Notes: generated from the sequence alone by a model not told the origin. 64,000 nucleotides of DNA from Patescibacteria group bacterium UBA6241 (GCA_002441425.1 DJWB01000001.1:105653-169652); one strand, 5' to 3'. Counted from the stretch's first letter, positions 15,368 through 53,916 are shown. A program made the numbers and translations.

Positions 15368-15368
15368 A

Positions 15369-21053: not shown

Positions 21054-21713
21054 TCAATCAAGCCCAAGTGCTTCAAGTATATGAAGGGGTTCAGTTACGA
21101 GTTCAGCGCCAAGCCGAATAAACTGATTCGCGCCAACACCATTAGGGTCTCCAATGCGGTGCGGGACACATAAAAGGTCTCTATCATATTCAGCAGTGAG
21201 TCTTGCTGTTATAAGTGTGCCTGAGCGCTCTCCCGCCTCAATAACAAGAACGGCATCAGACATGCCAACCATAAGACGATTGCGTGAAGGGAAGTCTGAG
21301 GGAAATGGAGTATGAAGAGGCTCTTGTTCTGAAAGAAGTCCCCCGCCCTGTGCAAGAATTTCTTGAGCGAGTCCTAGATTTGTTCTGGGAGCAATAACAG
21401 AATCATCAAGCCCTGACCCGGGTACGGCAAGTGTGTGAAGTCCTACGTTTAGTGCGGCCTCATGCGCACACGCGTCAGCACCAAGAGCAAGTCCGGAAAC
21501 TATGCTTATAGGGTACCCAGAAAGACCTTGTATAAGCATCTCGCAGATCTGCTTTCCATAGGGTGTGAGAGAGCGTGAACCTACTACTGCAAGAAGCTTG
21601 TGACCCTCTGGTGGCAGTGTTCCGCGAAGCCACAAGTGCTTTGGGGGATTGGGTATTTCGTTCAGAGACTTAGGGTAGTCCCGGGGAGTGAGTTGTCTCA
21701 TGTCCGTCGTCAT
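21054..21713 (-). CDS. dprA: DNA processing protein DprA/Smf
   Basis: Rossmann-like region VVGSRSLTPYGK...VSGLALGADACAH...LVIEAGERSGTLITA. Confidence 0.85.
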   Translation of the reverse strand: MTTDMRQLTPRDYPKSLNEIPNPPKHLWLRGTLPPEGHKLLAVVGSRSLTPYGKQICEMLIQGLSGYPISIVSGLALGADACAHEAALNVGLHTLAVPGSGLDDSVIAPRTNLGLAQEILAQGGGLLSEQEPLHTPFPSDFPSRNRLMVGMSDAVLVIEAGERSGTLITARLTAEYDRDLLCVPHRIGDPNGVGANQFIRLGAELVTEPLHILEALGLD

Positions 21714-26513: not shown

Positions 26514-26584
26514 TGGGAGATCGTCTAATGGTAGGACAGCGGCCTTTGAAGCCGTGAATCTAGGTTCGATCCCTAGTCTCCCAG
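26514..26584 (+). tRNA. tRNA-Gln(TTG)
   Basis: TGGGAGATCGTCTAATGGTAGGACAGCGGCCTTTGAAGCCGTGAATCTAGGTTCGATCCCTAGTCTCCCAG. Anticodon loop CTTTGAA. Confidence 0.85.
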
Positions 26585-26683
26585 CAATAAGAAAGCTCAA
26601 ATAACAAAGCCCCACAACCGCATGATTGGGGGCTCCCGTGACGAAATCGGGCTACGTCTGCTTTTCTTACAGGGATTGAGGAC

Positions 26684-27169
26684 TCAGATGATCCCGTTGA
26701 GAATCTTTACGAGCTGGTCGATCGCTTCTCGCTGTTGGGCATCGTGAGTAACTTCGCAGAGGTCCAGCAAACTATCACAGCCTTCATCACATTGATGTGC
26801 TGAAAGGAACGCCTGACCGATGGCCTGCTTGCCACCGCTAATGCAAATCATGAAGTCACGAATCGGTTCGGAAACGTGGCTCATGACGTGAAGGCTGTAT
26901 CCGAAGGAATCCAGCAACTCTTCTGTGTTGATCGTGACCTCCGTGCCCATTTGCCTGCCAGCATTCTTAGCGGCTGCACCGATTGCATTCTTTACTCTGC
27001 CGACCACGTTCTGAATCAGTCTGGCTTGCTTATGTGCCAAACGTTCTTCATGTGACATCGAAAAAACCATTTCGAGATGAATATCAAGCAACATCGTAAC
27101 GTCCTTGGGAATGAGTTCAGCATCCCTACTGACTGCAGAAGTTGAACACTGCAGTTTGTCCGTGTGCAA
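26684..27169 (-). CDS. Hypothetical protein (161 aa), divergent from the cassette array
   Basis: ORF between tRNA-Gln and the first array repeat. No tyrosine-recombinase motifs are recognisable. Somewhat elevated GC. Confidence 0.4.
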   Translation of the reverse strand: MHTDKLQCSTSAVSRDAELIPKDVTMLLDIHLEMVFSMSHEERLAHKQARLIQNVVGRVKNAIGAAAKNAGRQMGTEVTINTEELLDSFGYSLHVMSHVSEPIRDFMICISGGKQAIGQAFLSAHQCDEGCDSLLDLCEVTHDAQQREAIDQLVKILNGII

Positions 27170-27233
27170 TATGCTTTATTTATATAGATATGTCAAGTAT
27201 AAAAGTTCCAACATCGTCCCATACCCCCAGCCA

Positions 27234-27578
27234 ATGTATACTCGTGGTATGCCAACAGCTAACATCTATTTCAGTGGTCAGGATAATGTTGAGGCACTTC
27301 AGGCTCTTATTCCTGACCTTAAGACGTATCTCGCACAGGAACTTTCTTGCAGCGACATTTCCCTCACATCAGAAGAGATTAGCATTCGATTTATTACAAA
27401 TACCGGCCCCAATATGATTGGCGATGTAGAGGTTCAGATATCGGCCCATTCATTCCCAGAACGCATTCAAAAGCAGGATCAAGTATGTCTCGACGTAATG
27501 AAATGGCTCCAAGATCGAACTGAGGTAAAGAACATTAAGGTCTGGCTTCAGCTCTCTAAGCTAGGACATAGTTGGTAG
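27234..27578 (+). CDS. Cassette ORF, hypothetical (about 114 aa)
   Basis: ATG 2 nt after repeat copy 1 (27204-27232); coding-like composition. Confidence 0.45.
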   Translation: MYTRGMPTANIYFSGQDNVEALQALIPDLKTYLAQELSCSDISLTSEEISIRFITNTGPNMIGDVEVQISAHSFPERIQKQDQVCLDVMKWLQDRTEVKNIKVWLQLSKLGHSW

Positions 27579-27654
27579 GTTCGTTAATCTTAAGCAGTTT
27601 CGTGCAGATTTGACATAGTAAGTTTTAGTGATAAAAATCATTCGGAGGTGCGAA

Positions 27655-28020
27655 ATGGCAACAATCCTTATTGTCGAAGATACGCCGCTATACCAGCGAG
27701 GGTATCAAAGGGAGCTCGCAGAGCATACCTTGATCATCGCAGGGACTTCGGCTGTCGCCCGGGCTGAATTCGCCCGAATGCAGCATACGATCGATATCAT
27801 CATCCTCGATGGTGAGCTCGCTTCGATGGACCCCGAACGGGACACTGTCGATATGGCGAGCGACTTCCGTGCCGCAGGCTTTACGGGTCCGATGATCGCT
27901 GCGAGCAGCAACCCGTACATCATGAACCAGCTCATGGAGAAGAATCGGTGCTCGCACCGAGCCAGCCCCAAGTCTGATGTCCAAGACCTGGTCAACCAGA
28001 TCCTCGAGAACCGCCCTTAA
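27655..28020 (+). CDS. Cassette ORF, CheY-like receiver-domain protein (stand-alone), high GC
   Basis: SD GGAGG 5 nt upstream of the ATG at 27655. MATILIVEDTPL...IIILDGEL shows the receiver-domain beta1/beta3 pattern. About 58% GC. Confidence 0.5.
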   Translation: MATILIVEDTPLYQRGYQRELAEHTLIIAGTSAVARAEFARMQHTIDIIILDGELASMDPERDTVDMASDFRAAGFTGPMIAASSNPYIMNQLMEKNRCSHRASPKSDVQDLVNQILENRP

Positions 28021-28104
28021 CCGAGCGGTTTTTCATTTACCGAAAGACTCAGAAGGGTTCCAACATCGTCCCAGACTGCCAGCAACTTTGGTACACTTAT
28101 TTGT

Positions 28105-28521
28105 ATGGAGAAAATAGACGAGCAAATTCTACTCACAGAGAGCTTTGATGTGCATCAGGATTGGGAAACCCCAATACCAGGATTTTATATAGTCGCATCG
28201 AGAGATCTCTCCAAAAAGTCTGTCGCAGATTTTACTGACGCTGAATCAGTTGAACTAGCGCTCCTTCTTAAGCGAGTAAGAAAAGCGATGAGTGAAGCTC
28301 TGGGTATAGAGGTTGTGTACTTTTTTGAGAACGAAGATACGGAGCATAGTTTTCATTTCTGGATGTTTCCACGACATGCATGGATGAATCAGTTTGGACC
28401 AAAGGTTCAGTCAATACGGCCAATTATTGAATTCGCTCGACAAACTATGGCAACTCAAGAAACTCTGGCTGAGGTTAAGGAGGCGGCAGAAAAGATGCGA
28501 CTTGTCCTAAAGGAGGGATAA
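28105..28521 (+). CDS. Cassette ORF, hypothetical (138 aa)
   Basis: Starts 22 nt after repeat copy 2; the stop codon abuts repeat copy 3. Confidence 0.45.
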   Translation: MEKIDEQILLTESFDVHQDWETPIPGFYIVASRDLSKKSVADFTDAESVELALLLKRVRKAMSEALGIEVVYFFENEDTEHSFHFWMFPRHAWMNQFGPKVQSIRPIIEFARQTMATQETLAEVKEAAEKMRLVLKEG

Positions 28522-28706
28522 AATAGGTTCCAACATCGTCCCACACAGCCAGCATTATTGACAAGCATGTTTATTGTTTGTATTGTACAAACTTAGTTCT
28601 TTGAACACGTTCGCCACAACGCAGGGCACCCTATTTTTAGGATTCTGTGCGCTGTGGCGAATCTGAGATCAGGTTTGTTTGAACGGCGCTGTAAAACCAC
28701 TCAGCA

Positions 28707-29165
28707 ATGGAGTTTCCTATGAGTGAACAACAGTCCTTCCGCGGTCAGGTGGATCGCATGCTGGGACAAATCGTCACCCACGGTCGCCATCTCGAAGGAT
28801 GGACGTCTGAGGATCGGCAGTGGGTGATCGAATATCCGGTTCCGGCCCTCATACTCTTCGCGAAGGCGGTCAGAGAGCGGGATTCAATTCGGGAACCAAA
28901 GCCCGGTGCGGTCGACCTCCTGATCAAGGACGTCTTCACTGTTGAGAAGGCGGGACAGATTGGATCCACGAGTAATGCCAACGCTCGGGTTCTCAATCTG
29001 ACGGAAGAACGTCCGCTCGGTGCCCTTGGGCCGATCAAGACACTCGGCGAGCTAGCCGGGTACCGAGAGAACGTTTTGAGACACGAGCCTAATATGGGAG
29101 ACCAGACCATCTCCTACATCAAGGCCGTCTTGGCAGAGCATGGTCTCAGTTTAAGTTCGCAATAA
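28707..29165 (+). CDS. Cassette ORF, hypothetical (152 aa), high GC
   Basis: About 57% GC; preceded by a long imperfect inverted repeat at about 28610-28662. Confidence 0.45.
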   Translation: MEFPMSEQQSFRGQVDRMLGQIVTHGRHLEGWTSEDRQWVIEYPVPALILFAKAVRERDSIREPKPGAVDLLIKDVFTVEKAGQIGSTSNANARVLNLTEERPLGALGPIKTLGELAGYRENVLRHEPNMGDQTISYIKAVLAEHGLSLSSQ

Positions 29166-29284
29166 GATCATCATGGGCTGTCTGTTTCCGAAAGGGAATG
29201 GCGGCCCTTTTACTTAATAAAAGTTCCAACATCGTCCCACACACCCAGCTATAAAAAAACCGCCCACGGCTCTTGAGGCGGTTG

Positions 29285-29626
29285 TTACGGCTTGGTCAGT
29301 TCTTCAAGAACGATATCGAGGACCGTTGTTCTCAGCCATTTCTCGAAAGTGGCTGGGTTAAAAAGGTAAGTCGGTTCTATATTGCCGGGCTCGATCTTCC
29401 TTGAAATGGTTGTTCGTGTCCAGATACCCATCATGCCGTTGGCAGGGAAGTAAACCAGAGATAAACAGAACCAAGGATGTCCTTCCCTTGTTCCCTCTAT
29501 GTCATACCGGAGGTAGTACTTTTCCTTTTCGTTACCGGACTCTATCTCAACATCGCAACATAGAGGCTCTGCGAAGTGAGACAAAATAGTCAGAAGCGAG
29601 TCAGGACCTTCAAGATCTGTCGTCAT
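29285..29626 (-). CDS. Inverted cassette ORF, hypothetical (about 113 aa from MTTDLEG), with its own terminator
   Basis: Minus-strand ORF between repeat copies 4 and 5. Perfect minus-strand terminator AACCGCCTCAAGAGCCGTGGGCGGTTTTTTTA at 29253-29284. Confidence 0.45.
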   Translation of the reverse strand: MTTDLEGPDSLLTILSHFAEPLCCDVEIESGNEKEKYYLRYDIEGTREGHPWFCLSLVYFPANGMMGIWTRTTISRKIEPGNIEPTYLFNPATFEKWLRTTVLDIVLEELTKP

Positions 29627-29724
29627 GTGCGACTCCTGTAGCGAATCTAGACAGAACCTACCACATGCTGAAGAAAGGTTCCAACATCGTCCCACACAGC
29701 CAGCAGAGGTTGTATAATAGTTGC

Positions 29725-30120
29725 ATGAAGAATTCTTTTGGAATGAGGCCTCCTGCTAGGAACGAGCGCCCAGTTTCTGAAGCAAGAGAAATAACCCCAG
29801 CCCAGGTTCCTGATTTCGTTAAATCAGAGTTTAAGAGACTGAGAGATCAAATACTCCAAGAATCCGATGGCGCAGAACTGAAGGATAAGAAAGGATTGGT
29901 GGAGAATCTAGAAGATGGGGTCGAGCGTTATATTTTAGTTAATGAATTGCGAGACTCAGATACCCGGGCACATACTCAAGCCAGCCCATTTATGAATTTG
30001 ACTCCAAGCGGAACGTATAAGGAAATACACATGATTGTGGACGTAAAGAACGGAACTATAACTAAGTCCGAAATGAATAGAAACCCCGATCCCTCATGGT
30101 TCTCTATGAGGTATAGCTAA
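29725..30120 (+). CDS. Cassette ORF, hypothetical (131 aa)
   Basis: ATG at 29725, 21 nt after repeat copy 5; the stop abuts copy 6. Confidence 0.45.
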   Translation: MKNSFGMRPPARNERPVSEAREITPAQVPDFVKSEFKRLRDQILQESDGAELKDKKGLVENLEDGVERYILVNELRDSDTRAHTQASPFMNLTPSGTYKEIHMIVDVKNGTITKSEMNRNPDPSWFSMRYS

Positions 30121-30172
30121 GAAGGTTCCAACATCGTCCCACACAGCCAGCAACGAATGCTACACTTTTGTC

Positions 30173-30631
30173 ATGCGAACTGTTGAACGAGAGATCGCCT
30201 CTGCGCTCATCTTCTCAAAAGACGGGAAGCTCCTGCAGGTTAAGAATGCTGAACCTGTGCACGGAGTGTATGGAGAATGTTGGGTTATACCTGGCGGCGG
30301 TCTCGAAGAGGGAGAGACAGTGGAAGAGGCCGTGGTACGCGAAGTGATGGAGGAAGTCGGTCTAGATATCTCTTCTTCTCCGAAGGAATTAGTATGGACA
30401 GGCAACGGGGAATCGACCCGGATCCTCAAAGATACGGGCGAGGAGGTGCTCGTAAAGATGCGCTTCAACAACTTTAAAGTTCAGCTTGAAGAGAACGCAG
30501 AAGATATCCAGCTTACGTTTGGTGACGAACACCATGTGCATATATGGACCGATGTATCTGAGCTGAAGAACATGAGCCTCTCTCGACCATCTATAGAATG
30601 CCTGACTGAGCTTGGTTATTTACCGAGCTGA
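30173..30631 (+). CDS. Cassette ORF, NUDIX hydrolase
   Basis: NUDIX box GGGLEEGETVEEAVVREVMEEVGL (G-x5-E-x7-REUxEExGU). Confidence 0.8.
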   Translation: MRTVEREIASALIFSKDGKLLQVKNAEPVHGVYGECWVIPGGGLEEGETVEEAVVREVMEEVGLDISSSPKELVWTGNGESTRILKDTGEEVLVKMRFNNFKVQLEENAEDIQLTFGDEHHVHIWTDVSELKNMSLSRPSIECLTELGYLPS

Positions 30632-30685
30632 TTCTGGTTCCAACATCGTCCCAGACTGCCAGCCATCTATGTTAGGATTGGTTGA

Positions 30686-31018
30686 ATGAATAAGAATGGA
30701 TCGACTCGAGCTTGGTTCGTCATGTTTAGTCTGACAGCTATTGCTCTTGCAATCCCTCTCACAAATCTCAGCCTCTTACTTTCTGGAATATATAACGAGC
30801 CCGGGTATTCAGATGGAACTGTTTCGAGCCCAACCGAGATAGCATTCCTAACTGTTGCCATACTCGTGCCAATTGGAGTGACGGTTAGTGTGATTATGAC
30901 TCAGTGGAAGCGCTCTGTGGCATGGGGTGTGCTTGGTGTAATGATCTCATTTGCTCCTGTGCTTCTAGCAGCAATTATTGCGGCCGCTGCTATCATCTCT
31001 CGGGCTCTGTTCTCTTGA
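30686..31018 (+). CDS. Cassette ORF, small membrane protein (110 aa)
   Basis: Three predicted TM helices; terminates with TGA at 31016-31018, directly before repeat copy 8. Confidence 0.5.
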   Translation: MNKNGSTRAWFVMFSLTAIALAIPLTNLSLLLSGIYNEPGYSDGTVSSPTEIAFLTVAILVPIGVTVSVIMTQWKRSVAWGVLGVMISFAPVLLAAIIAAAAIISRALFS

Positions 31019-31119
31019 GTGTAAGGGTTTCAACATCGTCCCACACCCCCAGCCTGTAAGAGAAAACCCGCCAACAACTAAGAGACGGGAATCTCATTGT
31101 TGCAGCGGGTCGCGTTTGT

Positions 31120-31503
31120 TTAGTAGATATGAGGTGCGACGAAATAGCGGATGGACACGCGGCCTTGCTCGCCCGGTTCGTCGATCGTGATGATGACGTT
31201 GTCTTTCCAGACAGAGCGCAGCACCTCAACTGCTGCCGCAACCTGTTTGTAGTTGCGGAGGCCAGGGAGGTTGTAGCCGTAGCGGTCTGAGTACTTTCCG
31301 TACATCAAAAGCACCTCGATGACCTGCTGCTCCCTGACGAATCGGCGCAGGCTGGTGTTCTCTGGAGGAATGGCCTCCAGAAGGGCAGTTGCGAGTCTCG
31401 CTTCAGCCTCAGCCTGATCTTGTCGTTGTCGCTCGAACTCAGAGAGAGTGCGGATTCGATCGCTCAGCGCTGACGCTAAACGAAAAGGATCGAGATTGTT
31501 CAC
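31120..31503 (-). CDS. Inverted cassette ORF, hypothetical (127 aa), elevated GC
   Basis: Minus-strand ORF between repeat copies 8 and 9. Confidence 0.4.
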   Translation of the reverse strand: MNNLDPFRLASALSDRIRTLSEFERQRQDQAEAEARLATALLEAIPPENTSLRRFVREQQVIEVLLMYGKYSDRYGYNLPGLRNYKQVAAAVEVLRSVWKDNVIITIDEPGEQGRVSIRYFVAPHIY

Positions 31504-31627
31504 GGTTCTTCTCCCAATAACCTAGTGAGGAATATACTATTTAAATTCTATTTAGTCAACAGATCCTGCAGAAAGGTTCCAACATCGTCCCAGACAGCAA
31601 ACACTAAAGAATGCCATAATCAGTAAT

Positions 31628-32077
31628 ATGTATTACATATACAAAGAAATGCAGCCAGGCGAACAAGAAATAGTTCGTGGGATGATACATAGTTTTTACG
31701 CAACCGATCCAGATATGGGCGCAATAACAGACGAGAAGATTAATCGTACTTTTAGTGAGTTTTCAAAGCATCCAGAGAAAGGTTTTGTATATGTAATAAA
31801 GGACGACCAACAGATTGTTGGCTACAGCATACTTGTGAACTTTTGGAGCAATGAGGCGGGAGGAAATATCATTGATATTGACGAGTTGTTCGTAGAAGAG
31901 AGCGAGCGAGGAAAGGGAGTGGGAACAAATTTCATTAAGCACATTATAGAAAGTCGTCTGAACGAATGTGTCGCTGTTGAACTAGGGGTCATAGCAGGGA
32001 ATGACAGAGCACAAAGACTTTATGAGCGAATAGGGTTTAGGCTCTCCACTAACCGTCGCCTAATATATGATTTCTAA
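31628..32077 (+). CDS. Cassette ORF, GNAT family N-acetyltransferase
   Basis: Acetyl-CoA binding motif ...ELFVEESERGKGVGTNFIKHII...; 149 aa. Confidence 0.75.
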   Translation: MYYIYKEMQPGEQEIVRGMIHSFYATDPDMGAITDEKINRTFSEFSKHPEKGFVYVIKDDQQIVGYSILVNFWSNEAGGNIIDIDELFVEESERGKGVGTNFIKHIIESRLNECVAVELGVIAGNDRAQRLYERIGFRLSTNRRLIYDF

Positions 32078-32135
32078 CCTGACTAGGTTTCTAACAACGT
32101 CTCAGACTGCCAGCTAATTTTGATACACTTCTTGC

Positions 32136-32810
32136 ATGAATTCTGTACTTATAACTGGAGCAGGCAGAGGAATAGGCAAAGAACTGTCTCTGAGATTTCT
32201 CGGTGCTGGGTATCGGGTGTGGGGAACTACAACATCGGGAGATGCTGATTTCTCGCACGAGAATCTTCAAATGCTACAGCTCGATCTCCGTTCACCAGAG
32301 AGCATAAAGACATGCGTGCAGGAATTAATTAGTTCCGGCGAACGATTCGATATTGCAGTTAACAATGCAGGGGCGCTCCTTGATGAGAACGAAAAGACCC
32401 TCAAGACAGATCTCCTACGCCAAACACTAGAGATAAACCTTATTGGAACTTCGGATTTTACAGAGCAAGTTTTACCTCTTGTGAATAAAGGAGGGCACAT
32501 TGTTATGGTGTCGTCTTCTGCTGGATCAGTTGGAAGGACTGGCAATGTAGTAAGCCGATATCCATCACAGTATCCCGCGTACAAGATCTCAAAGGCTGCA
32601 CTTAACATGTATATGCGTACACTTGCCGTTCGATTGAAGGATAAGGACATTACGGTGTCTTCTGTCCATCCTGGATGGGCCAGGACTGATATGGGAGGTG
32701 AAGAGGCATCAATCTCAGCGGAGGAAGCTGCCGACACTGTTTACAAGGTAGCCATATCTAGACCAGAGACTGGTCACTTCTGGTATTCAGAAGGAGAATT
32801 GCCTTGGTAG
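32136..32810 (+). CDS. Cassette ORF, short-chain dehydrogenase/reductase (SDR)
   Basis: ITGAGRGIGKEL (TGxxxGxG) and the catalytic YPAYKISKAAL (YxxxK). Confidence 0.8.
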   Translation: MNSVLITGAGRGIGKELSLRFLGAGYRVWGTTTSGDADFSHENLQMLQLDLRSPESIKTCVQELISSGERFDIAVNNAGALLDENEKTLKTDLLRQTLEINLIGTSDFTEQVLPLVNKGGHIVMVSSSAGSVGRTGNVVSRYPSQYPAYKISKAALNMYMRTLAVRLKDKDITVSSVHPGWARTDMGGEEASISAEEAADTVYKVAISRPETGHFWYSEGELPW

Positions 32811-32867
32811 AAAGTTCCAACGTCGTTCTAGGCCGTCAGCTCATAAAATTCATGCTAAATTTCTCTC

Positions 32868-33413
32868 ATGATTAAAATCACTTACTTTGTCCACGGAACA
32901 ACTGTAGACAATCAGAATGAGATCTCCTCCGGCTGGTCTGACGCCCCTCTATCCGAGTTAGGTATTCAGCAGTCAAAAGATCTTAAGGAGCAAACTAAGG
33001 ATAAGCATTTTGATGTAGTGTTTTGTTCTGACCTGCAACGCGCTCGCATGTCTGCAGAACTTGCTTGGGGCAGTATGTACGAGATTATTCCCGATGCTCG
33101 TCTTCGTGAATGTAACTATGGCGAGCTGAATGGAAGAGCATCTGAAATTGTAGAGCCGCTGCAAGAGAAGGAAATGCATTTCAAGGCATTTCCGGGTGGG
33201 GAGAGTTATGAGGATGTGAAGAATCGTGTTGCTGACTTCCTTGATTTCCTCAAAGAAAATTATGATGGCAAGCACGTAGCGCTAGTGGGTCATAAGGCAC
33301 CCCAGCTTGCACTTGATGTCCTTATCAAAGGAGTAACCTGGGACGAGGCTCTCGCGAATGATTGGCGTAAGACTAAGTCTTGGAAACCAGGCTGGGAATA
33401 CCAACTAATCTAG
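32868..33413 (+). CDS. Cassette ORF, histidine phosphatase superfamily (PGM-like) protein
   Basis: N-terminal ITYFVHGTT... and an internal VALVGHKAP region; tentative. Confidence 0.5.
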   Translation: MIKITYFVHGTTVDNQNEISSGWSDAPLSELGIQQSKDLKEQTKDKHFDVVFCSDLQRARMSAELAWGSMYEIIPDARLRECNYGELNGRASEIVEPLQEKEMHFKAFPGGESYEDVKNRVADFLDFLKENYDGKHVALVGHKAPQLALDVLIKGVTWDEALANDWRKTKSWKPGWEYQLI

Positions 33414-33472
33414 TTAAACAGGTTCCAACATCGTCCCACACCCCCAGCCAATAAAATTGTTATAGTTTATGT

Positions 33473-34042
33473 ATGACTTATATTCTTCATGGAGGATTTG
33501 AACGGGAAGATAACGAGTTAAATAGAAGCTTCTATCAAGAAGTTCTGAAAGGCGTTTCTGATAATGGAACACTTCTTCTTGTTCACTTTGCTTCAACTCA
33601 CTCTCCAGAAGAGGTGAAAGAAACACACGAACTCCAGGAGAAAAGGATGCAAAGCCTTACGAACAAACATATAAATGTTGAGTTCGCGACCGAAGAAGAT
33701 TTCTTAAATCAAGTGGAGCACGCGGATGCAATTCACATGCGAGGAGGACATACACCGAAATTGCTTTCAGTCCTGAAAAACTATCCGGAACTTGCAGCTA
33801 TGTTCTCAAACAAAACTATTTCTGGATCTTCAGCCGGAGCTTATGCATTGGCAAAATATGGACCCGGGCATTCAGAAGAGGGAATACGTGAAGGTTTGGG
33901 TCTTGTTCCTATTAGATTGGCCTGTCATTACGAAAGTCTAGAGTTACCTCCTGATTCTGAGTCACTTACTGAACTTAAAGCTATGGCGACAGAACTGGAA
34001 CTTGTAACATTGAGAGATTTTGAGTGGCGCGTATTCAATTAA
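33473..34042 (+). CDS. Cassette ORF, peptidase S51 (dipeptidase E)-like protein
   Basis: Nucleophile motif ISGSSAGAYAL (GxSAG) and a flavodoxin-like fold pattern. Confidence 0.5.
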   Translation: MTYILHGGFEREDNELNRSFYQEVLKGVSDNGTLLLVHFASTHSPEEVKETHELQEKRMQSLTNKHINVEFATEEDFLNQVEHADAIHMRGGHTPKLLSVLKNYPELAAMFSNKTISGSSAGAYALAKYGPGHSEEGIREGLGLVPIRLACHYESLELPPDSESLTELKAMATELELVTLRDFEWRVFN

Positions 34043-34093
34043 GGTTCCAACGTCATCTCACACCGCCAACAACTTCATGCTACGGTACTGAGT

Positions 34094-34546
34094 ATGAGAA
34101 GAGTTTCAGTAAGAGGTATCGCCCTACACGAAGGGAAACTTCTGTGCGTTAAATTGAAGCCGTATAACAAGATGGCTGCATCAGGAGGTGATTGGCGATG
34201 TCTTCCGGGAGGAACAGTTGAAGAAGGAGAATCATTGAATGTAGCTCTTATGCGGGAGATGTACGAGGAGACTGGCGTAAGTCCGGAAATAGGGAAACTA
34301 TTGTATGTTCATCAGTTTCTATTTGAGGAAAGTGACCAGCTTGAATTTTTCTTTCATATTGCTAATCCGGGTGACTATCTAGAAATAGACCTAGAGAACA
34401 CAACGCACGGATTACATGAGATCGAGAGTATTGATTTCGTAGACCCAAAAGAAACATTTATTCTCCCTATATTTCTTTCTCAGGAGACTTTAAAGAACCA
34501 AATCGAATCAAATGCACCGGTTAAAATATTTTCCTTTGCAAAGTAG
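34094..34546 (+). CDS. Cassette ORF, NUDIX hydrolase
   Basis: NUDIX box GGTVEEGESLNVALMREMYEETGV. Confidence 0.8.
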   Translation: MRRVSVRGIALHEGKLLCVKLKPYNKMAASGGDWRCLPGGTVEEGESLNVALMREMYEETGVSPEIGKLLYVHQFLFEESDQLEFFFHIANPGDYLEIDLENTTHGLHEIESIDFVDPKETFILPIFLSQETLKNQIESNAPVKIFSFAK

Positions 34547-34589
34547 GTCAGAGGATGGTTAATAAAAAGTTCCAACATCGTCCCAGACT

Positions 34590-34628
34590 GGCAACAAATA
34601 AAAACTGCCTAAAACCTTTCGGTCTTCG
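34590..34628 (+). terminator. Hairpin terminator-like element at the end of the array
   Basis: AAACTGCCTAAAACCTTTCGGTCTTCGGCAGTTTGAG immediately after the last repeat copy. Confidence 0.45.
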
Positions 34629-34958
34629 GCAGTTTGAGAGTTCATTCAGAATTGGCTGCGTCAGCTCTGCGTCGCTCGTCAGTCAATTCATCAAAATTTT
34701 TTGAGCTGAGTCGCCGATAGAGCGCATGCCGCTCATGTGGGTCTCTGTCTACATTGTTGGGGTGATCCAGAATTTCTTCAAGAGTTCTGAATCCTGAAGA
34801 TTGCTCGTGCATGAGATAGGTCTCCCTTCTGGACAGAACCTAACACGGACTGCATATACGTTCGAGCGTCGCCCAATACTACTAGACATGAAAATGGACA
34901 AGGAGCTATTTTATTGTATGGTGCTAGCAGAGAGACAATTAGCCAGGAGGGCTAGCAG

Positions 34959-35708
34959 ATGTACCAACCAACACAGCCGCTACTGTTCTCCTGGATTCAT
35001 GAAGGTGAATACCCGGGAGGAGACTACACCTTTTTACACAGTAATGGCTCATATGTACGAATTGAGGACTGGAAGAAACGGTATAAGGACACAAAGGAGA
35101 AACCGGCTATCCCATTCAGATTCACCGTGCGTGACCGCACATTCATTGGCCACATAACCGACGAATGTCTGGTATCGCGCATAACTGAGTATCTGCAGGA
35201 TTACTACGGTAAGCGTTACACCAACTGCTCCGCGTTCGCTCACTTCCTGACTACCGGCACGTTTATAGAGTGCGACGAAGAACAGAGCCTCGTTGTGCTT
35301 ACGCAGGACATGGCTCAGTACCGAGGCGAGACTATTCGTGTCGGGGATATGCTTTGCGTAATCTATGCGAATGATCGCCTTTGGCGGTCTCGCAAGGTGT
35401 CGCACCGCAAAAGTTACTTGCGTGCCAAGAAGAAACGGAGAGGTACGCACGAGTTCACTCACGGGTTACCTCCAAGAAAGAGGATTCTCTCCGCGAAGGG
35501 TATCCGGGAACTCTGCGCGAGTGTTCTCGCTGATGATTATCACTTTCTTGTCTGCGTCGCTAAAGACGCCGCCGGGCCGGTATGGCTTGCTCAAGGTGGA
35601 CGCTACGCACCGGGTGACGAACCTAGTCCGCTGGTGTTCACGGTGGGGAACAATGATGGATACGATAATGTAGTACCTCTCCTTGCGCTCCTTAAAAGAC
35701 GTAGATGA
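34959..35708 (+). CDS. Hypothetical protein (249 aa) with a basic KKKRRG stretch
   Basis: Coding-like ORF. The overlapping 34801-35157 ORF looks spurious. Confidence 0.4.
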   Translation: MYQPTQPLLFSWIHEGEYPGGDYTFLHSNGSYVRIEDWKKRYKDTKEKPAIPFRFTVRDRTFIGHITDECLVSRITEYLQDYYGKRYTNCSAFAHFLTTGTFIECDEEQSLVVLTQDMAQYRGETIRVGDMLCVIYANDRLWRSRKVSHRKSYLRAKKKRRGTHEFTHGLPPRKRILSAKGIRELCASVLADDYHFLVCVAKDAAGPVWLAQGGRYAPGDEPSPLVFTVGNNDGYDNVVPLLALLKRRR

Positions 35709-35811
35709 TCCCGGCTCTACACTTCAACGCCCGCGGCATTTATGTCGTGGGTGTTTCATTTTAAGTTCAGCATCGCTCCAGGCGGTCAGTTTATGGGTAT
35801 ATACTCTGCAT

Positions 35812-36816
35812 ATGTCAGCAATAGAACTTGTAAGAGTCTCTACTCCGGAAGATTGGGAGCAATATCACAGCATTAGAGAAAAAGTTTTATTTGAGAACAA
35901 GAACCGGTCTTATGATCGGACTCATGCTGATGAACACCGGCCTAACAATGTGCCATTTCTGCTAAAGAAGGACGGACTAGGTATAGCGACCACAAGACTA
36001 GATCTTCGTCCTGACACCCAAGCGGCTATTATCCGTCTAGTTGCTGTAGTTGAGTCTGAGCAACGAAAAGGGTATGGACGTGCTCTACAAGCAAAAATAG
36101 ATGAATATGCACGTTCTCAAGGCGTAAAAAGGCTTCTCGTTAATGCTGCCCCCGATGCTATTGGTTTCTATAAAAAGATCGGTTTTGTGCCGGAATCGTG
36201 GGACCCAGAAGAACTCACAGGAATATCTAAGGATTCCGTTCAGTTGTCTAAAGCATTGTTACCCATGACTGAAAAGGAAATACTTGAGCTAATCAAGAAC
36301 GACGAGTGGATGATGTCTATTCTTAGGGTAGCTCGTAGCCTTAATCTGCCGGATTGGATAATTGGTGCAGGATTCGTAAGAAACAAAGTTTGGGATCATC
36401 TACACGGGTATACGGAACGCACCCCTTTAGCTGATATAGATTTGATTTACTTTGATCCAGCTCATATAGATGAGTCACAAGAAAAAGAGTATGACCAAAG
36501 GCTACATCAATTAGTTGATGTTCAATGGTCTACAAAGAATCAAGCACGCATGCATGTAATAAATGGAAACGCACCATTTACCTCTGCAGAAGACGGATTG
36601 GCGCATTGGATTGAAACTCCAACATGTACTGGAGTAACGTTGCTAGACAACGACACTCTGCAATTAATTGCACCCTACGGGATAGAGGACCTTGTGCACT
36701 TGCGAGTGAGACCAGTTAACCCAGAGAAAGATATTACGCTTTATAGAGAGCGGGTAACAAAAAAGAAATGGAAGGAAACTTGGCCAAGACTAGAAATCTT
36801 AGAGACCAGAGCATAA
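35812..36816 (+). CDS. GNAT acetyltransferase fused to a nucleotidyltransferase-family (NTP_transf_6/DUF925-like) domain
   Basis: N-terminal GNAT (VESEQRKGYGRALQ...GFYKKIGF); C-terminal WIIGAGFVRNKVWDHLHG...DIDLIYFD. ATG at 35812. Confidence 0.55.
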   Translation: MSAIELVRVSTPEDWEQYHSIREKVLFENKNRSYDRTHADEHRPNNVPFLLKKDGLGIATTRLDLRPDTQAAIIRLVAVVESEQRKGYGRALQAKIDEYARSQGVKRLLVNAAPDAIGFYKKIGFVPESWDPEELTGISKDSVQLSKALLPMTEKEILELIKNDEWMMSILRVARSLNLPDWIIGAGFVRNKVWDHLHGYTERTPLADIDLIYFDPAHIDESQEKEYDQRLHQLVDVQWSTKNQARMHVINGNAPFTSAEDGLAHWIETPTCTGVTLLDNDTLQLIAPYGIEDLVHLRVRPVNPEKDITLYRERVTKKKWKETWPRLEILETRA

Positions 36817-36832
36817 TCAGCGAGAACAAACT

Positions 36833-37132
36833 CTACTGCATACTTACTAGTATGAGCATGCTGATTGTTAGCACAGCAAATACCCCTAGTGTCTTTAAAA
36901 AGTAGGACACGGCTTCAGCTCTCCTATTTTCTATAAGCAGTGCAACTGGTTGATAGAAAAACAGGAAGGCCATAACAGCTACAGAGAGCACCAGCAGAGA
37001 AATTACTCCCACGCCGTCTAGAAATGTGTCTGGTGTGTCGTGACGAAGTGATTCAATAAACTGCATAAACAGCGCTATGGCGCTTATATACAGGGCTGCT
37101 GCTACTGCATTCAATACGGGATTCCATTTCAT
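36833..37132 (-). CDS. Small membrane protein (99 aa)
   Basis: Three TM helices. Confidence 0.45.
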   Translation of the reverse strand: MKWNPVLNAVAAALYISAIALFMQFIESLRHDTPDTFLDGVGVISLLVLSVAVMAFLFFYQPVALLIENRRAEAVSYFLKTLGVFAVLTISMLILVSMQ

Positions 37133-37198
37133 ATAACTAGTATAACGGCGCAGCGCCTACCTTAGTTGCTTGCTGCTTGGCCGCGATATACTACACGC

Positions 37199-37630
37199 AT
37201 GAAAAAGGGAGAGGATTATGTGGGCGTTACCCTAAGCTTCTTCTGCCATGATGGAAAAGGAAACTTTATACTATCTAAACGCAGTGCAAATTGTCGTGAC
37301 GAGCACGGACGATGGGATTTCGGAGGAGGGGGATTAGATCTGCACGAGACAGTAGAAAATCAGCTACGCAGGGAAATAAAGGAGGAACTCTGTACGGATG
37401 TACTTGAATACGAGTTTCTCGGATATCGGGATGTGCACCGAGAGCATGAAGGAAAGAAGACACACTGGGTATCTTTGGACTTTAAAGTACTGATAGATCC
37501 TTCTCAGGTTAAGAATGGAGAGCCACACAAGTTTGATGAAATAGCATGGTTTAGACTGGACGCTCTTCCTGAGCCACTACATTCTCAGGCTCCTTTGGAG
37601 GTCGCCCTGTATAAGGCACAGCTTTCATAA
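37199..37630 (+). CDS. NUDIX hydrolase
   Basis: NUDIX box GGGGLDLHETVENQLRREIKEELC. ATG at 37199. Confidence 0.75.
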   Translation: MKKGEDYVGVTLSFFCHDGKGNFILSKRSANCRDEHGRWDFGGGGLDLHETVENQLRREIKEELCTDVLEYEFLGYRDVHREHEGKKTHWVSLDFKVLIDPSQVKNGEPHKFDEIAWFRLDALPEPLHSQAPLEVALYKAQLS

Positions 37631-37706
37631 GAGAATCTTGCAGAAATTGACTTTAATTTCTGCATCTATATAGTCAAAAAACCTAAAACACCGAGTCGGA
37701 GGGTTA

Positions 37707-38030
37707 ATGGTAGATGCTCTTTTAGTACTGGTGTATCTGGGCTTTGCGACCTCTGCGATATCAGTAACGCTTACGAGATCGGATATTACTCGCGAGCCGC
37801 GTCAGTGGCTCAAAGAGAAAGTCCCGTCTCTCGCAGGCCTTATTCATTGCCCATACTGCACTAGCCACTGGGTCGCCATGGTGCTTGTCCTGTTCTACAA
37901 GCCCGTTGTGGTTGACCTGTTTCTCCCCATTGATCTCGCCGTCTCCGTTATGGGCGTCGTAGGGATTGCCGGGGTCGTCTCAGGGATCTTGATTACAAAG
38001 ATCCCCTCGCTTGGAAGGAAGGAAGACTGA
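37707..38030 (+). CDS. Small membrane protein (107 aa)
   Basis: Three TM helices and a CPYC motif. Confidence 0.45.
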   Translation: MVDALLVLVYLGFATSAISVTLTRSDITREPRQWLKEKVPSLAGLIHCPYCTSHWVAMVLVLFYKPVVVDLFLPIDLAVSVMGVVGIAGVVSGILITKIPSLGRKED

Positions 38031-38150
38031 AATGCCGAAATGGGTTCCGAGATGCCCGATCTTTTGGATGCTGGTCATCATCATCGCCGTGAGCATCGGC
38101 GTGTGGCGGTGTAGTTCCGGATAAGGGATAACTTCCCACGAATACTTTTT

Positions 38151-38178
38151 AAGCCGCCGGAAGAATTGGCGGCTTTTT
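38151..38178 (+). terminator. Rho-independent terminator
   Basis: AAGCCGCCGGAAGAATTGGCGGCTTTTT. Confidence 0.6.
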
Positions 38179-38232
38179 ACTTTGTGAACACAAATAAATC
38201 TTGCCGTTTAGTATGCGATATACTTTATTCAT

Positions 38233-38571
38233 ATGAAATTCTTTGTAACCTACCAAATGCCCCATACGGGAATGGACGAGTGGATGAAAATCCCAGAAGA
38301 AGAGCGAAAAGTACAAGAACAGCAAATGCAGTCTGAATGGAATGCGTGGATGGGAGACCACAAGGACTCGCTAACTGAAAGTGCTGGTGTTGGAAAACCA
38401 AAGCGAATCACCGCAAAGGGAACTGAAGACGCTCGCAACGACATTATGATGTACTCATTTGTTGAGGCCACTACGCTTGAAGAGGCAGCAGAGATATTTA
38501 AAGATCATCCACACTTTGGCATTCCAGGTGCGTGGATAGAAGTGATGTCCGTAAATAAGAATATCGGCTAA
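38233..38571 (+). CDS. Hypothetical protein (112 aa)
   Basis: Coding-like ORF; no motif recognised. Confidence 0.4.
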   Translation: MKFFVTYQMPHTGMDEWMKIPEEERKVQEQQMQSEWNAWMGDHKDSLTESAGVGKPKRITAKGTEDARNDIMMYSFVEATTLEEAAEIFKDHPHFGIPGAWIEVMSVNKNIG

Positions 38572-38587
38572 GTAGTAGCAGATACGC

Positions 38588-38935
38588 ATGTCCTACAAGT
38601 TAACGAAGTCTGCGGATCTTCCAAAGAAGGAGAAGTACGAAATGGAGATCCGTATCTTGCCTGAGATTGGGAATTGCAATGTCATTACCGCTGAAACAGA
38701 AACCGGACACAATCAGGAGTTTTATGACACTGAATCAACCTTCCACTACATCATAGTGAGCGGGTCCGGAAGCTTTTTCCTTGATGATAAGGAAGTCCCT
38801 GTTTCTGAAGGCGACTATCTTTCGATAGAACCAAAGACAAGAATCTATTACAAAGGCCGTATGCGTCTTGTGCTAATAACAAATCCTCCCTGGCGGCAGG
38901 AGAATGAGGTTGAGACAAGATCCAAGATTTGGTAA
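38588..38935 (+). CDS. Cupin-domain protein
   Basis: Double-stranded beta-helix pattern around HNQEF...HYIIVSGSGSF...GDYLSIEP. Confidence 0.5.
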   Translation: MSYKLTKSADLPKKEKYEMEIRILPEIGNCNVITAETETGHNQEFYDTESTFHYIIVSGSGSFFLDDKEVPVSEGDYLSIEPKTRIYYKGRMRLVLITNPPWRQENEVETRSKIW

Positions 38936-38942
38936 ACGGCGT

Positions 38943-39347
38943 ATGCAAAAACTACCCACAGAACTCGCTGCTCTACTAAGAAAGAATAAAGAGACTCAAG
39001 CAAGCTGGAGTTCACTTACTCCTATTGCCCAAAGAGATTTCATTACATGGATTAATTCTGCAAAGCAGGAGACAACTAGGATAAAGAGAGCTGAACGAGT
39101 TCCTGATATGTTGCGCTCAGGAAAGCGCCGCCCCTGCTGCTACGCAGTGGTGCCCATGGATCTTTATAGAGAACTAGGAGCAAATCCCAAGGCGAAAGCT
39201 ACATGGAAGACTCTCTCAGCCACAGAACGCAGAGACTTTAGCGATTGGGTAAGTACAGCTAGCAGTAAAGAGGATACCGAGCAAAGAGTTGAAAAAGTGA
39301 AGAAGCTTCTTATGCAAGGCAAAAAGAGCCTTGGAAGCAAGAAGTAG
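38943..39347 (+). CDS. YdeI/OmpD-associated family protein
   Basis: LPTELAALLRKN...WSSLTPIAQRDFITWINSAKQETTRIKR pattern. ATG at 38943. Confidence 0.55.
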   Translation: MQKLPTELAALLRKNKETQASWSSLTPIAQRDFITWINSAKQETTRIKRAERVPDMLRSGKRRPCCYAVVPMDLYRELGANPKAKATWKTLSATERRDFSDWVSTASSKEDTEQRVEKVKKLLMQGKKSLGSKK

Positions 39348-39398
39348 CGCCTCTCAACAGACTCCTCATACCCACTTCACAAGGCGCATGAGATAGTT

Positions 39399-40061
39399 AT
39401 GAGACGTATGCAAACAAACCAAAGAAACATCCTGATTATAGGCGCTGTAGTTGCTGCTCTCATCCTTATCGGAGGGGGATGGTATCTAATTTCTAATGTA
39501 AACCCTCCTCCTTCAACAGATACCTCAACATTTAAGAGTAAGGCATTCTGGTTTGACTACCCAAGAATATTTGATGTACGTGAGTTTGAAACAGGTGCAG
39601 TACTCGTAGGCTCTCAAGAACGAAAGGAATTTGTCCCGTTGGTTCAAGTTATGGAGTACAAGAGTGATCCTGATTCACCACTACCCGCAAGCTACGAGGA
39701 GTTTGTAACGCAGCAAGCACTTGAACTTTGTGGGTCAGACAACTCGGAAGAGAGTGTTGAGTGTAGTACTCCTGTAGTTGAGCCGTTCACAAGCCTTAAT
39801 GCATTTGAGGGACTTAAAGTTACGCTTACTCTCACACGGACTAATCTAGAGACACAGGAATCTGTCGCATCAACCTTTGGTCCAATCTATGCATTTGATG
39901 TAACGAAGCCTGCAACAGCAGAGGATCCATTAAGATACACATCAATATTTGTGAACCCAACTCTTCAGGCAACTCTCTCAGGCACTGAAGTAACAGAGTT
40001 GCTTGATGCTGTTGTTGCAAGACTTGTTATAAGTAATGAAGACTCACAACTTCCACTCTAA
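39399..40061 (+). CDS. Hypothetical membrane-anchored protein (220 aa)
   Basis: N-terminal TM helix ILIIGAVVAALILIGGGWYLI. Confidence 0.45.
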   Translation: MRRMQTNQRNILIIGAVVAALILIGGGWYLISNVNPPPSTDTSTFKSKAFWFDYPRIFDVREFETGAVLVGSQERKEFVPLVQVMEYKSDPDSPLPASYEEFVTQQALELCGSDNSEESVECSTPVVEPFTSLNAFEGLKVTLTLTRTNLETQESVASTFGPIYAFDVTKPATAEDPLRYTSIFVNPTLQATLSGTEVTELLDAVVARLVISNEDSQLPL

Positions 40062-40063
40062 CT

Positions 40064-40474
40064 ATGAAAGGATTCGTAACTAATATTGAGCACGAGACAG
40101 AGGAGAATAATAACTTTAGAAAGGTGCTCTACACTGCGCAGCATTGCCAGCTCGTTGTGATGTCAATTCCAGTATCAGAAGATATTGGAGCAGAAATACA
40201 CGATGTAGATCAGTTCATTCGTATTGAAGAAGGGGAAGGTACGAGCATACTAGACGGTGTTGAACGATCTCTCACCAAGGGCTCTGCGGTAGTTATTCCT
40301 GCAGGTGTACAGCACAACATCATAAATACTTCAGACACCAATGCACTCAAGCTATATAGCGTATATGCTCCCGCACATCATGAAGATGGAGTGATCCACA
40401 AAACAAAAGCTGAGGCACTTAAAGATGATGAACACTTTGACGGACACACTACTGATGCGCTAGAACAAGAGTAA
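40064..40474 (+). CDS. Cupin-domain protein
   Basis: [17 protein letters not shown]...[11 protein letters not shown] is a cupin motif pair. Confidence 0.5.
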
Positions 40475-40959: not shown

Positions 40960-40962
40960 CGT

Positions 40963-53897: not shown

Positions 53898-53916
53898 GAA
53901 ACTATGCTCAAACTTG

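Follow-up and report, generated by a model that had tools for sequence, protein, structure and literature searches.

The cassette array behind tRNA-Gln

The stretch of DNA analyzed here, 64,000 nucleotides (nt) from the Patescibacteria group bacterium UBA6241 (GCA_002441425.1, DJWB01000001.1:105653-169652; hereafter the window), carries an array of about 15 gene cassettes behind a tRNA-Gln(ttg) gene (26514-26585, + strand; found by ARAGORN, 63.8 bits with Rfam). The array occupies positions 26586-34891, beginning at the final base of the tRNA, and most of its units consist of a single open reading frame (ORF) with a predicted promoter of its own and a 29-nt direct repeat at the end. This repeat, here called R, has the window consensus GGTTCCAACATCGTCCCAsACnsCCAGCA. 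With nhmmer, a profile search returned 14 significant copies plus a decayed one, every copy on the + strand and none outside 27.2-34.9 kb; a 20-mer of R found 12 matches at up to three mismatches, against 0.01 expected. The array is headed by the last 23-24 nt of tRNA-Gln (GGTTCGATCCCTAGTCTCCCAGC, 26563-26585, + strand), a site resembling attI. A first-pass annotation of the region had concentrated on the guanine-plus-cytosine (GC) content of the cassettes, and its claims are considered together with the composition data below.

Unit 0 (26586-27203, - strand) lies between tRNA-Gln and the first repeat and holds an ORF of up to 161 amino acids (aa) without Pfam family (26684-27169, - strand), with a promoter-like TTGACA-17-CATATT arrangement at 27196-27168; the closest relative, locus L002 (related loci are numbered L002, L010 and so on), has unrelated sequence at this place. 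R1 (27204-27232; 35.1 bits in nhmmer, which also gave the repeat scores that follow) precedes unit 1 (27249-28020), in which, as in all cassettes not described as reversed, the genes lie on the + strand. Unit 1 has two ORFs, the first without family (27249-27578; 109 aa, 43.6% GC) and the second (27655-28020; 121 aa, 56.3% GC) with a weak match to the response-regulator receiver domain that remains under the cut-off (23.4 bits). Between them lie a possible decayed repeat, recognized by eye from the sequence only (27579-27607; 14 of 29 positions matching), and, before the second ORF, TTGACA-17-AAAAAT at 27610-27638. R2 (28056-28084; 43.0 bits) is followed by an ORF of 138 aa with no family above cut-off (28105-28521; 42.9% GC), and R3 (28526-28554; 39.0 bits) by an ORF of 152 aa without family (28707-29165; 55.6% GC, with a GC content at third codon positions, GC3, of 0.627). 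The latter has a hairpin-rich leader of about 150 nt (28556-28706) with strong hairpins (ttcgccacaacgcag...ctgtgcgctgtggcgaa), conserved with the leader of a 74% homologue from another metagenome (L157, 2330-2477); no Rfam model matches the leader, which may act as a cis-regulatory RNA.

R4 (29222-29250; 35.3 bits) adjoins a terminator-like hairpin read from the sequence (29253-29283) and a reversed cassette ORF (29285-29626, - strand; 113 aa, 46.5% GC). Beyond R5 (29677-29705; 39.2 bits) lies an ORF of 131 aa without family (29725-30120; 42.9% GC), beyond R6 (30124-30152; 37.8 bits) a NUDIX hydrolase (30173-30631; PF00293, E = 2.7e-15; 49.7% GC), beyond R7 (30636-30664; 36.8 bits) a hydrophobic protein of 110 aa without family (30686-31018; 47.1% GC), and beyond R8 (31026-31054; 29.9 bits) a second reversed cassette ORF within the repeat-bounded part, again without family (31120-31503, - strand; 127 aa, 55.7% GC, GC3 0.648). 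The remaining cassettes encode mostly recognizable enzymes: a GNAT acetyltransferase (31628-32077; PF00583, E = 1.9e-15; 40.7% GC) behind R9 (31575-31603; 35.7 bits), a short-chain dehydrogenase (32136-32810; PF00106, E = 4.9e-32; 46.5% GC) behind the degenerate R10 (32086-32114; 20.2 bits, E = 3e-5), a histidine phosphatase (32868-33413; PF00300, E = 4.2e-32; 46.0% GC) behind the degenerate R11 (32813-32841; 21.0 bits), a peptidase S51-like protein (33473-34042; PF03575; 41.2% GC, GC3 0.316) behind R12 (33421-33449; 34.7 bits), and a second NUDIX hydrolase (34094-34546; PF00293, E = 3.7e-14; 40.4% GC) behind R13, likewise degenerate (34043-34071; 22.5 bits). R14 (34568-34596; 35.2 bits) precedes the last unit, with a terminator-like hairpin (34598-34640) and a small reversed ORF (34642-34812, - strand; 56 aa) that is called as a gene in two related loci (L119 and L161). 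Eight cassette ORFs have no Pfam family at all. The reversed ORFs number four (26684-27169, 29285-29626, 31120-31503 and 34642-34812), and for the last three a terminator-like hairpin can be read from the sequence beside a repeat.

At the right edge of the variable region there is a terminal, strongly decayed repeat (34852-34891, + strand; 5.2 bits, E = 1.9, not significant alone), which coincides with the return of homology to L002 (window 34890 = L002 7435) and is 71% similar to the surroundings of R5. It is followed by cassette-like accessory genes without detectable repeats (34892-40962, + strand), encoding GNAT-NTP_transf_6, NUDIX, DUF1360, two cupins, YdeI/OmdA and MsrA, and then by a conserved HI0933-like gene (40963-42198). 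In two related loci (L037 and L065), the HI0933 gene follows tRNA-Gln with just one cassette and one repeat in between. Because these loci have a single cassette between the tRNA and the flavoprotein gene, the interval at 34.9-41.0 kb of the window resembles fossil cassettes, and its accessory genes may be just that.

Repeats, heads and cassette turnover in related genomes

Among species-representative genomes, the 20-mer of R matches more than 118 loci, and 75 loci, all in metagenome-assembled genomes of Patescibacteria, have between two and seven co-oriented copies. In the 264 copies that these loci supplied for a consensus, the conserved part is a linear run of about 35 bases, A-n-A-A-A-G-GTTCCAACATCGTCCCAGACnGCCAGCAA, that lacks an inverted counterpart. 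The 29-nt site GGTTCCAACATCGTCCCAGACTGCCAGCA closes each cassette at its 3' end, in the window 3-30 nt past the stop codon of the preceding ORF, and across the arrays the units so delimited have a median size of 568 bp (interquartile range 434-704, n = 189). The longest ORF per unit was forward in 102 cases and reverse in 72, a count that we judge unreliable owing to spurious antisense ORFs. Folding of 12 bottom strands with their flanks (81 nt each) against 200 shuffles each revealed no excess structure (z = -0.94 to +1.43), and Rfam searches returned tRNAs only, both for the array and the complete window and for ten related loci. R forms no hairpin and is excluded as an attC site on that ground.

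The taxon labels of the carriers range from Saccharibacteria to Kaiser-, Adler-, Wolfe- and Nomurabacteria, individual labels not being trusted. We regard the carriers as one broad Parcubacteria-type clade, because their flanking housekeeping genes align at 65-70% nucleotide identity, the genus C7867-001 is treated as Parcubacteria (PMC11188291) and the named homologues of one cassette protein are all Parcubacteria. The common gene order is serS, dus, dnaX, tRNA-Gln, array, HI0933-like flavoprotein and ABC-F ATPase. Several arrays may be present in one genome, as illustrated by contigs LFCR01000004 and LFCR01000002, which jointly have at least three.

Two sets of matches outside this clade were set aside; the other genome loci with the 20-mer are all in metagenome-assembled genomes of Patescibacteria. 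Seventeen high-GC loci with the 20-mer correspond to one alphaproteobacterial methylase gene and were taken as a coincidental match; likewise, as regards phage or plasmid carriers, all 33 matches in IMG/VR are to one C5-methylase gene of a high-GC alphaproteobacterial prophage. In such prophages a 24-nt stretch identical to the R core (AAGGTTCCAACATCGTCCCAGACA) lies antisense in a C5-methylase-like gene (...VWDDVGT...), which we also take as coincidence (L005, L017, L031, L032, L045, L056, L059, L070, L072, L073, L077, L090-L092 and L102; viral, L124-L156).

In about 18 further loci the array lies directly behind tRNA-Gln, and the tRNA is intact. Elsewhere the last 24 nt of tRNA-Gln occur as a free-standing head, H, of the form [G/A]GTTCGAT[A/C]CCTAGTCT[G/C]CCAGCA, in about 45 loci at up to five mismatches (about 0.002 expected per locus), in the orientation of the repeats and 160-900 nt upstream of the first R, that is, one cassette length away. 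Most arrays with a visible upstream side have a head motif in this position, one cassette ahead of the first R. Two arrays behind tRNA-Pro (L010 and L087) are headed by H, and many other H-headed arrays are without any tRNA; the same R is used behind tRNA-Gln, behind tRNA-Pro plus H, and behind protein genes. R itself resembles the end of tRNA-Gln (GGTTC...CC-AG-CTGCCAGCA): the final 15 nt of H and R are identical at 13 positions (CCTAGTCTGCCAGCA vs CCCAGACTGCCAGCA), GGTTC opens both, and divergent R variants in L157 come closer still to the T-loop (GGTTCGAATATCG...). Beyond GGTTC and these 13 of the last 15 nt the resemblance does not extend, whereas the heads are true copies of the tRNA-Gln end.

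Free-standing heads were also observed to start exactly at the stop codon (TAG or TAA) of housekeeping genes in the same orientation, among them those for YchF, AlaRS, the HI0933 flavoprotein, and UDG-like, LexA-like and other proteins, nearly all in the single frame in which the head supplies or overlaps the stop (L081 5267, L061 3251, L088 3861, L038 1685, L065 3999, L083 3607 and L084 2074; further, L111, L046, L113, L019, L021, L094, L110, L012 and L089). Another locus (L004; reverse coordinates 1457, 1541 and 1694) has three tandem tRNA-Gln 3' ends in 240 nt upstream of its array, with one intact tRNA-Gln predicted; these tandem ends may be footprints of recombination at the head.

The cassettes also appear to bring their own expression signals. 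In nine of the 12 forward cassette ORFs a regular-expression search placed a -10 or extended -10 element 6-7 nt ahead of the ATG, and in a tenth (31628) a -10 element, TGCCATAAT, is visible by eye. Extended -10 elements precede 7 of 12 cassette ORFs, compared with 3 of 56 other ORFs of the window; the ORF at 28105-28521 has one 7 nt ahead of its ATG, and the ORF at 29725-30120 has TATAAT 6 nt ahead, while other cassettes have TTGACA-17-TAxxxT sites, these being consensus matches only. A generic scan for sigma-70 promoters and terminators yielded no enrichment over shuffles. As far as consensus motifs can tell, most cassettes carry their own promoter, with a leaderless start predicted. The -10 box lies downstream of R at variable spacing (R positions 33-43), and because of this varying distance R was ruled out as a fixed promoter element. 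Shine-Dalgarno motifs are scarce across the window (8 of 56 ORFs), and a -10 box lies 6-8 nt ahead of the ATG in many first genes, dnaX, parB and several cassettes among them; the host organism seems to rely on leaderless expression as a rule. Additionally, some cassettes have no ORF and carry promoter-like and terminator-like signals (L020 3500-3780; L010 1872-2289; L052 3643-4059; L087 after 5294, reverse coordinates); they are 86% conserved between genomes, have no Rfam match and may be non-coding RNA cassettes.

Comparison of related loci showed that the content between conserved flanks is replaced. The flanks of L002 are 77-85% identical to those of the window and match through ...CCCAGC of the tRNA and again from 34890, whereas between them no sequence matches and L002 has 6 repeats against 15 in the window. 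The sister genomes of L010 and L087 have flanks 80% identical and five and three cassettes, respectively. All that their cassettes share is 44 nt at the start of one, the farthest from the head in L010 and the nearest to it in L087; with almost no cassettes in common, this pair was uninformative as evidence on head-proximal insertion. Four cassettes are common to different genomes at 78-88% identity, and their homology stops at the repeats. One of them stands behind R in L038 and behind H in L081, and another behind R in L010 and L052 and behind H in L087. In all three of the latter loci the site upstream of the common cassette reads ...GCCA(C/T)CCCT in place of ...GCCAGCAA, and therefore the bases past CCA travel with the downstream cassette. 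Conversely, an unusual variant of the downstream repeat, GTTCTAxCGTCG, is common to the L010 and L052 copies and travels with the upstream cassette. These junctions indicate, therefore, that R belongs to the 3' end of the cassette and that the junction lies at CCA/GCA (the slash marking the join), where the acceptor stem of the tRNA ends.

Within the population of the window the array did not vary. The order of its units is identical in assemblies from independent projects (JGI 3300001592, ENA ERZ27315056, SRR5323224 and SRR9433xx), and the ORF at 28105-28521 is found as an identical protein with the same neighbours in assemblies of several sequencing projects. On the time scale sampled, the window array is sedentary.

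Composition and origin of the cassettes

The first-pass annotation had described cassettes that differ sharply in GC content, with the repeats precisely at the transitions, as would suit capture from different donors. The mean GC content of the window is 47.5%, and the 15 cassette ORFs, with curated start codons, span 0.404-0.563 in GC (standard deviation, SD, 0.054) and 0.316-0.689 in GC3 (SD 0.113). Size-matched in-frame segments of backbone genes gave SDs of 0.026 and 0.058, and none of 5000 resamples reached the cassette SD; this null omits three atypical high-GC backbone ORFs, and when they are kept p rises to 0.10 for GC and 0.023 for GC3. The proposed check of each unit against the backbone thus finds an excess spread, yet for GC one that depends on which backbone ORFs are admitted. 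The extremes are the ORFs at 27655-28020, 28707-29165 and 31120-31503 (55.6-56.3% GC; z = +3.0 to +3.2) and those at 31628-32077, 33473-34042 and 34094-34546 (40-41% GC; z = -2.9 to -3.0). All cassette values fall within the raw span of 400-bp segments of the window (0.39-0.70), and with spacers counted in, whole units vary only between 0.40 and 0.52. The cassettes thus do differ in composition, but moderately and not "sharply".

Four of the six values that had been given for single intervals hold (27640-28020, 0.562; 28707-29165, 0.556; 31120-31503, 0.557; 31628-32077, 0.407), whereas 29285-29695 has 0.472 and not 55-60%, and 30686-31018 has 0.471 and not 38-45%. The placement of the repeats at the transitions is a weak tendency: GC changes by a mean of 0.064 across a repeat and by 0.045 from one half of a unit to the other (one-sided Mann-Whitney p = 0.06). 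The widest single step (0.14) occurs within unit 1, from its ORF of 43.6% to that of 56.3% GC, where only the very decayed repeat-like stretch at 27579-27607 is present. Nevertheless, the mosaic is general: in 38 other arrays the unit-to-unit SD of GC is 0.042 against 0.022 for flank segments, with p<0.05 in 19 of the 38. Across these arrays, whose hosts have 34-59% GC, mean unit GC follows host GC only in part (r = 0.70), with regression toward 0.47.

Homologue searches covered three cassettes, two of high and one of low GC, the high-GC pair being compared with 5.8 billion proteins. The ORF at 28707-29165 had two homologues, of which that at 74% identity lies in a repeat-flanked cassette (L157-L159). 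Four homologues were found for the ORF at 31120-31503, and in relatives of about 53% GC (L120 and L123) the interval from dnaX to HI0933 holds those that are about 60% identical. The S51 cassette (33473-34042) had about 100 homologues; every one with an organism name is from Parcubacteria (Kaiserbacteria, Adlerbacteria and Paceibacterota), and those whose surroundings were examined lie in repeat arrays (L169-L172). The closest S51 homologue on a longer contig (L173, 2186-3133; 73%) lies beside a rve-type (DDE) transposase with no detectable repeat array, and therefore cassette genes also occur outside arrays. In every genome examined the high-GC family of 31120-31503 lies above its host in GC3 (0.65-0.75 vs 0.44-0.58 in housekeeping genes) and the S51 family below (0.32-0.42 vs 0.44-0.67). 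The GC offset is, in part, a property of the gene family and not of a traceable donor.

The earlier claims therefore divide. Capture from different phyla, for instance Actinobacteria against low-GC lineages, is unsupported, since the placed or named homologues of the three cassettes lie within the lineage of the backbone, the very result that the annotation had set against its own proposal. Its view of the units as independently acquired cassettes, and not a duplicated operon, is upheld: the cassette genes are mutually unrelated, L002 has the same flanks and none of the same cassettes, cassettes shared elsewhere are bounded by repeats, and the excess unit-to-unit variance in GC is general across the 38 arrays. 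Taken together, the GC mosaic is real and general, and it fits a cassette pool circulating inside the clade faster than its composition adjusts; GC alone cannot name the donor of a given cassette.

The backbone itself has three patches of 56-60% GC (52704-54029, 60372-61432 and 20704-20997) whose long ORFs, present on either strand, have no Pfam family; one patch adjoins a holin-like gene (53641-54360). These patches inflate the GC variance of the backbone and may be foreign or unusual genes.

Proposed recombination at the repeat and comparison with known systems

We consider it probable that the array is an integron-like, tRNA-anchored chromosomal cassette platform, moved by site-specific recombination, whose cassettes circulate within the clade. 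We infer a dedicated recombinase encoded elsewhere, an exact crossover point and insertion at the head. In such a system the 3' end of tRNA-Gln would serve as head, and each cassette would consist of a promoter, usually one ORF, and R at its 3' end. Cassettes would be gained and lost by recombination of R with the head or of R with R, through an enzyme encoded elsewhere in the genome, with the crossover inside the shared CCA/GCA motif. Because this motif is the end of the acceptor stem, insertion at the head would keep the tRNA intact and place the new cassette adjacent to it; the cassettes begin with GCA(A), by which base 73 would be restored when one enters at a real tRNA-Gln. With distance from the head, older cassettes and repeats would decay, and horizontal circulation among related Patescibacteria (Parcubacteria) of about 34% to 59% GC, outpacing compositional change, would produce the GC mosaic.

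Several observations weigh against this proposal. Pfam searches of the 65 ORFs of the window detected no tyrosine, serine, DDE or HUH recombinase, and a tyrosine-recombinase motif scan of locus ORFs found none beside about 90 arrays except for one XerC/D-like gene (L020), which adjoins the last repeat and may be ordinary flank. The site is also atypical, since R has no dyad symmetry, which is unusual for the core site of a tyrosine recombinase, and past the proposed crossover its 3' side is conserved only as an A-rich stretch. The crossover point derives from three cassette families only, and exact-protein look-ups across assemblies recovered no rearranged version of the window array in the population. 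The farther a repeat ranks from the head, the lower its score tends to be (Spearman -0.46, p = 0.004; 38 repeats, 5 arrays), which fits head entry and distal decay, the arrays being few and the points non-independent. To these must be added the family-specific GC offset and the larger p values obtained with all backbone ORFs. The wider searches agreed: all-against-all clustering of 3461 ORFs from 118 loci returned housekeeping genes and no recombinase family, Pfam found no recombinase among large ORFs within the big units of other arrays, the ORFs upstream of free-standing heads are housekeeping genes with no recombinase among them, the 189 units contain no recombinase genes or integrase remnants, and the ORF at 26684-27169, which diverges at the place usual for intI, has no Pfam family.

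This lack of any recombinase linked to the arrays is one point in favour of a scenario with no dedicated enzyme, in which RecA would exchange cassettes between repeats after natural transformation with the DNA of related cells. The repeats, 29-35 nt and nearly identical across genomes, are near the minimal length for homologous exchange, Patescibacteria have been reported to be naturally transformable, and a DprA gene lies 5 kb upstream of the array (21054-21713). We nonetheless hold RecA exchange to be unlikely, as it leaves unaccounted for the origin of the repeat, the constant start at the tRNA-Gln end with its match of 13 of 15 nt, and the meeting of the junctions of three cassette families at the single point CCA/GCA. 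Moreover, a core of 17-20 nt is extremely conserved where housekeeping genes are about 65% identical, which suggests recognition by a protein.

That the array begins at a tRNA 3' end, that R resembles the end of tRNA-Gln, and that the R variants of L157 are closer to the T-loop could also be understood if the units were decayed tRNA-targeting integrative elements, accreted in tandem, each once with an integrase, with R as a diverged att repeat derived from the tRNA. Islands of elements flanked by partial tRNAs are known, as in the tycheposon islands of Prochlorococcus (10.1101/2020.12.28.424599). Such an origin appears quite doubtful here, given the tight size distribution of the 189 units around 570 bp, each with one ORF and none with an integrase remnant, and given that R has its own conserved sequence, different from the 3' end of the host tRNA, and is used behind different tRNAs and behind protein genes.

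It is very unlikely that R is a regulatory or RNA-level element, or a repeat of the MITE (miniature inverted-repeat transposable element) or REP (repetitive extragenic palindromic) type, and that the GC differences are gene-intrinsic and within normal genomic variance. This explanation would suit the closeness of R to stop codons, the free-standing heads that abut housekeeping stop codons to the base, the stability of the array across samples, the GC offset of each family in every host, and the p value of 0.10 for GC with all backbone ORFs. Yet within the 64-kb window R occurs in the co-oriented array and nowhere else; it also bounds reversed cassettes, and therefore cannot be in their mRNA; and it shows no structure, terminal inverted repeats or Rfam match. 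Conserved flanks with replaced content and shared cassettes that end at R likewise argue otherwise, and GC3, which is not dictated by amino-acid content, deviates most. MITE or REP-type repeats were rejected on the ground that R is unstructured, on one strand only and confined to the array in the window.

A classical integron array, or a cluster of attC sites lacking an integron integrase (CALIN), with repeats folded single-stranded as attC sites for IntI, is most improbable: it would match the cassettes in one common orientation, most with a single ORF and about as large as those of integrons (median 568 bp), the gene content typical of chromosomal integrons (GNAT, NUDIX, short-chain dehydrogenase and many unknowns) and the site at the cassette 3' end with the crossover at its 3' edge, but the repeats fold no better than shuffles, have no inverted R''/R' boxes and show linear conservation over about 35 nt, intI is missing both next to the array and from the rest of the window, the array is headed by a tRNA 3' end, and most cassettes have promoters of their own.

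Returning to the tRNA-anchored platform moved by site-specific recombination, it is quite possible, and we propose it tentatively, that it represents an undescribed class of gene-capture platform and a functional analogue of the integron with an independent origin in tRNA-targeted integration, with multiple arrays per genome headed by tRNA-Gln ends and with self-expressed cassettes. Its recombinase may then be of an unexpected type and encoded elsewhere. A literature search that included the repeat sequence itself, with subscription journals largely outside its coverage, found no description of such arrays.

Most bacteria of the candidate phyla radiation are uncultured; their genomes are tiny and are thought to be poor in mobile elements. 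If the proposed system is real, its presence in many such genomes would make it a main route of gene flux in a large part of the bacterial tree, and the integron design of a head site with stacked single-gene cassettes would have arisen more than once, from different parts. Since R can be found with a 20-mer, it offers a handle for polymerase chain reaction or read mining of the cassette metagenome of the clade, as attC primers do for integrons, and the pair of head and repeat is a candidate docking site for genetic tools in Patescibacteria. The narrow lesson from GC content is more modest, namely that the mosaic reflects circulation inside one clade and not capture from distant phyla.

Two further features of the window stand apart from the array. 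A LAGLIDADG-type ORF (14792-15484, - strand; PF14528, E = 6e-11) lies directly downstream of tRNA-Leu(caa) (15379-15463, - strand), which it overlaps in its longest form, and a paralogous pair of ORFs (10624-11703 and 12289-13197) has a type IV secretion pilin domain (PF18895).

Among known systems, clustered regularly interspaced short palindromic repeats (CRISPR) were rejected, as the repeats here are spaced at 390-1850 bp with a gene in each interval, in contrast to non-coding spacers of 25-70 nt. Modules that depend on Xer recombinases, such as the pdif modules of Acinetobacter plasmids and the integrative mobile elements exploiting Xer (IMEX), use dif-like sites with two inverted 11-bp arms and a 6-bp spacer, and pdif sites alternate in orientation. 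As such modules are generally described, the arrays share with them the small gene modules, the short (about 28 bp) conserved sites and, if the proposal holds, a recombinase encoded elsewhere, but R has no dyad symmetry, all its copies are direct, and it has no resemblance to the dif consensus.

Tandem accretion is also known from cis-mobilizable elements (CIMEs) and integrative and conjugative elements (ICEs). Like tRNA-targeting elements and tycheposons, the arrays occupy a tRNA 3' end with the tRNA preserved, have tandem units split by att-type direct repeats partly related to the tRNA end, and form islands at conserved positions. Unlike those elements, their units, of about 0.4-0.7 kb, hold one gene each and lack both integrase and replication module, and R is a distinct conserved sequence, not a copy of the local tRNA end.

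The closest likeness in organization is to sedentary chromosomal integrons, such as the Vibrio superintegron, and to CALINs: long co-oriented arrays of compact, mostly single-ORF cassettes with unrelated or unknown functions, a recombination site at the cassette 3' end, one fixed proximal head site, turnover of content between conserved flanks, mosaic composition and some reversed cassettes with their own terminators. The geometry of the junctions, too, is that of recombination between attI and attC. In contrast to the structured, sequence-variable attC hairpin, R is a linear, unstructured site of 29-35 nt conserved across genera; the place of an attI beside intI is taken by the 3' end of tRNA-Gln or a free-standing copy of that end, with no linked integrase; one genome can carry several arrays; and the cassettes would bring promoter and leaderless start and need no Pc-type promoter, whereas integron cassettes are generally promoterless. 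Overall, the system functions like a sedentary integron and like the accretion of tRNA islands, and by the defining features of both it falls outside either, because attC structure and intI are both lacking and none of its units carries an integrase.

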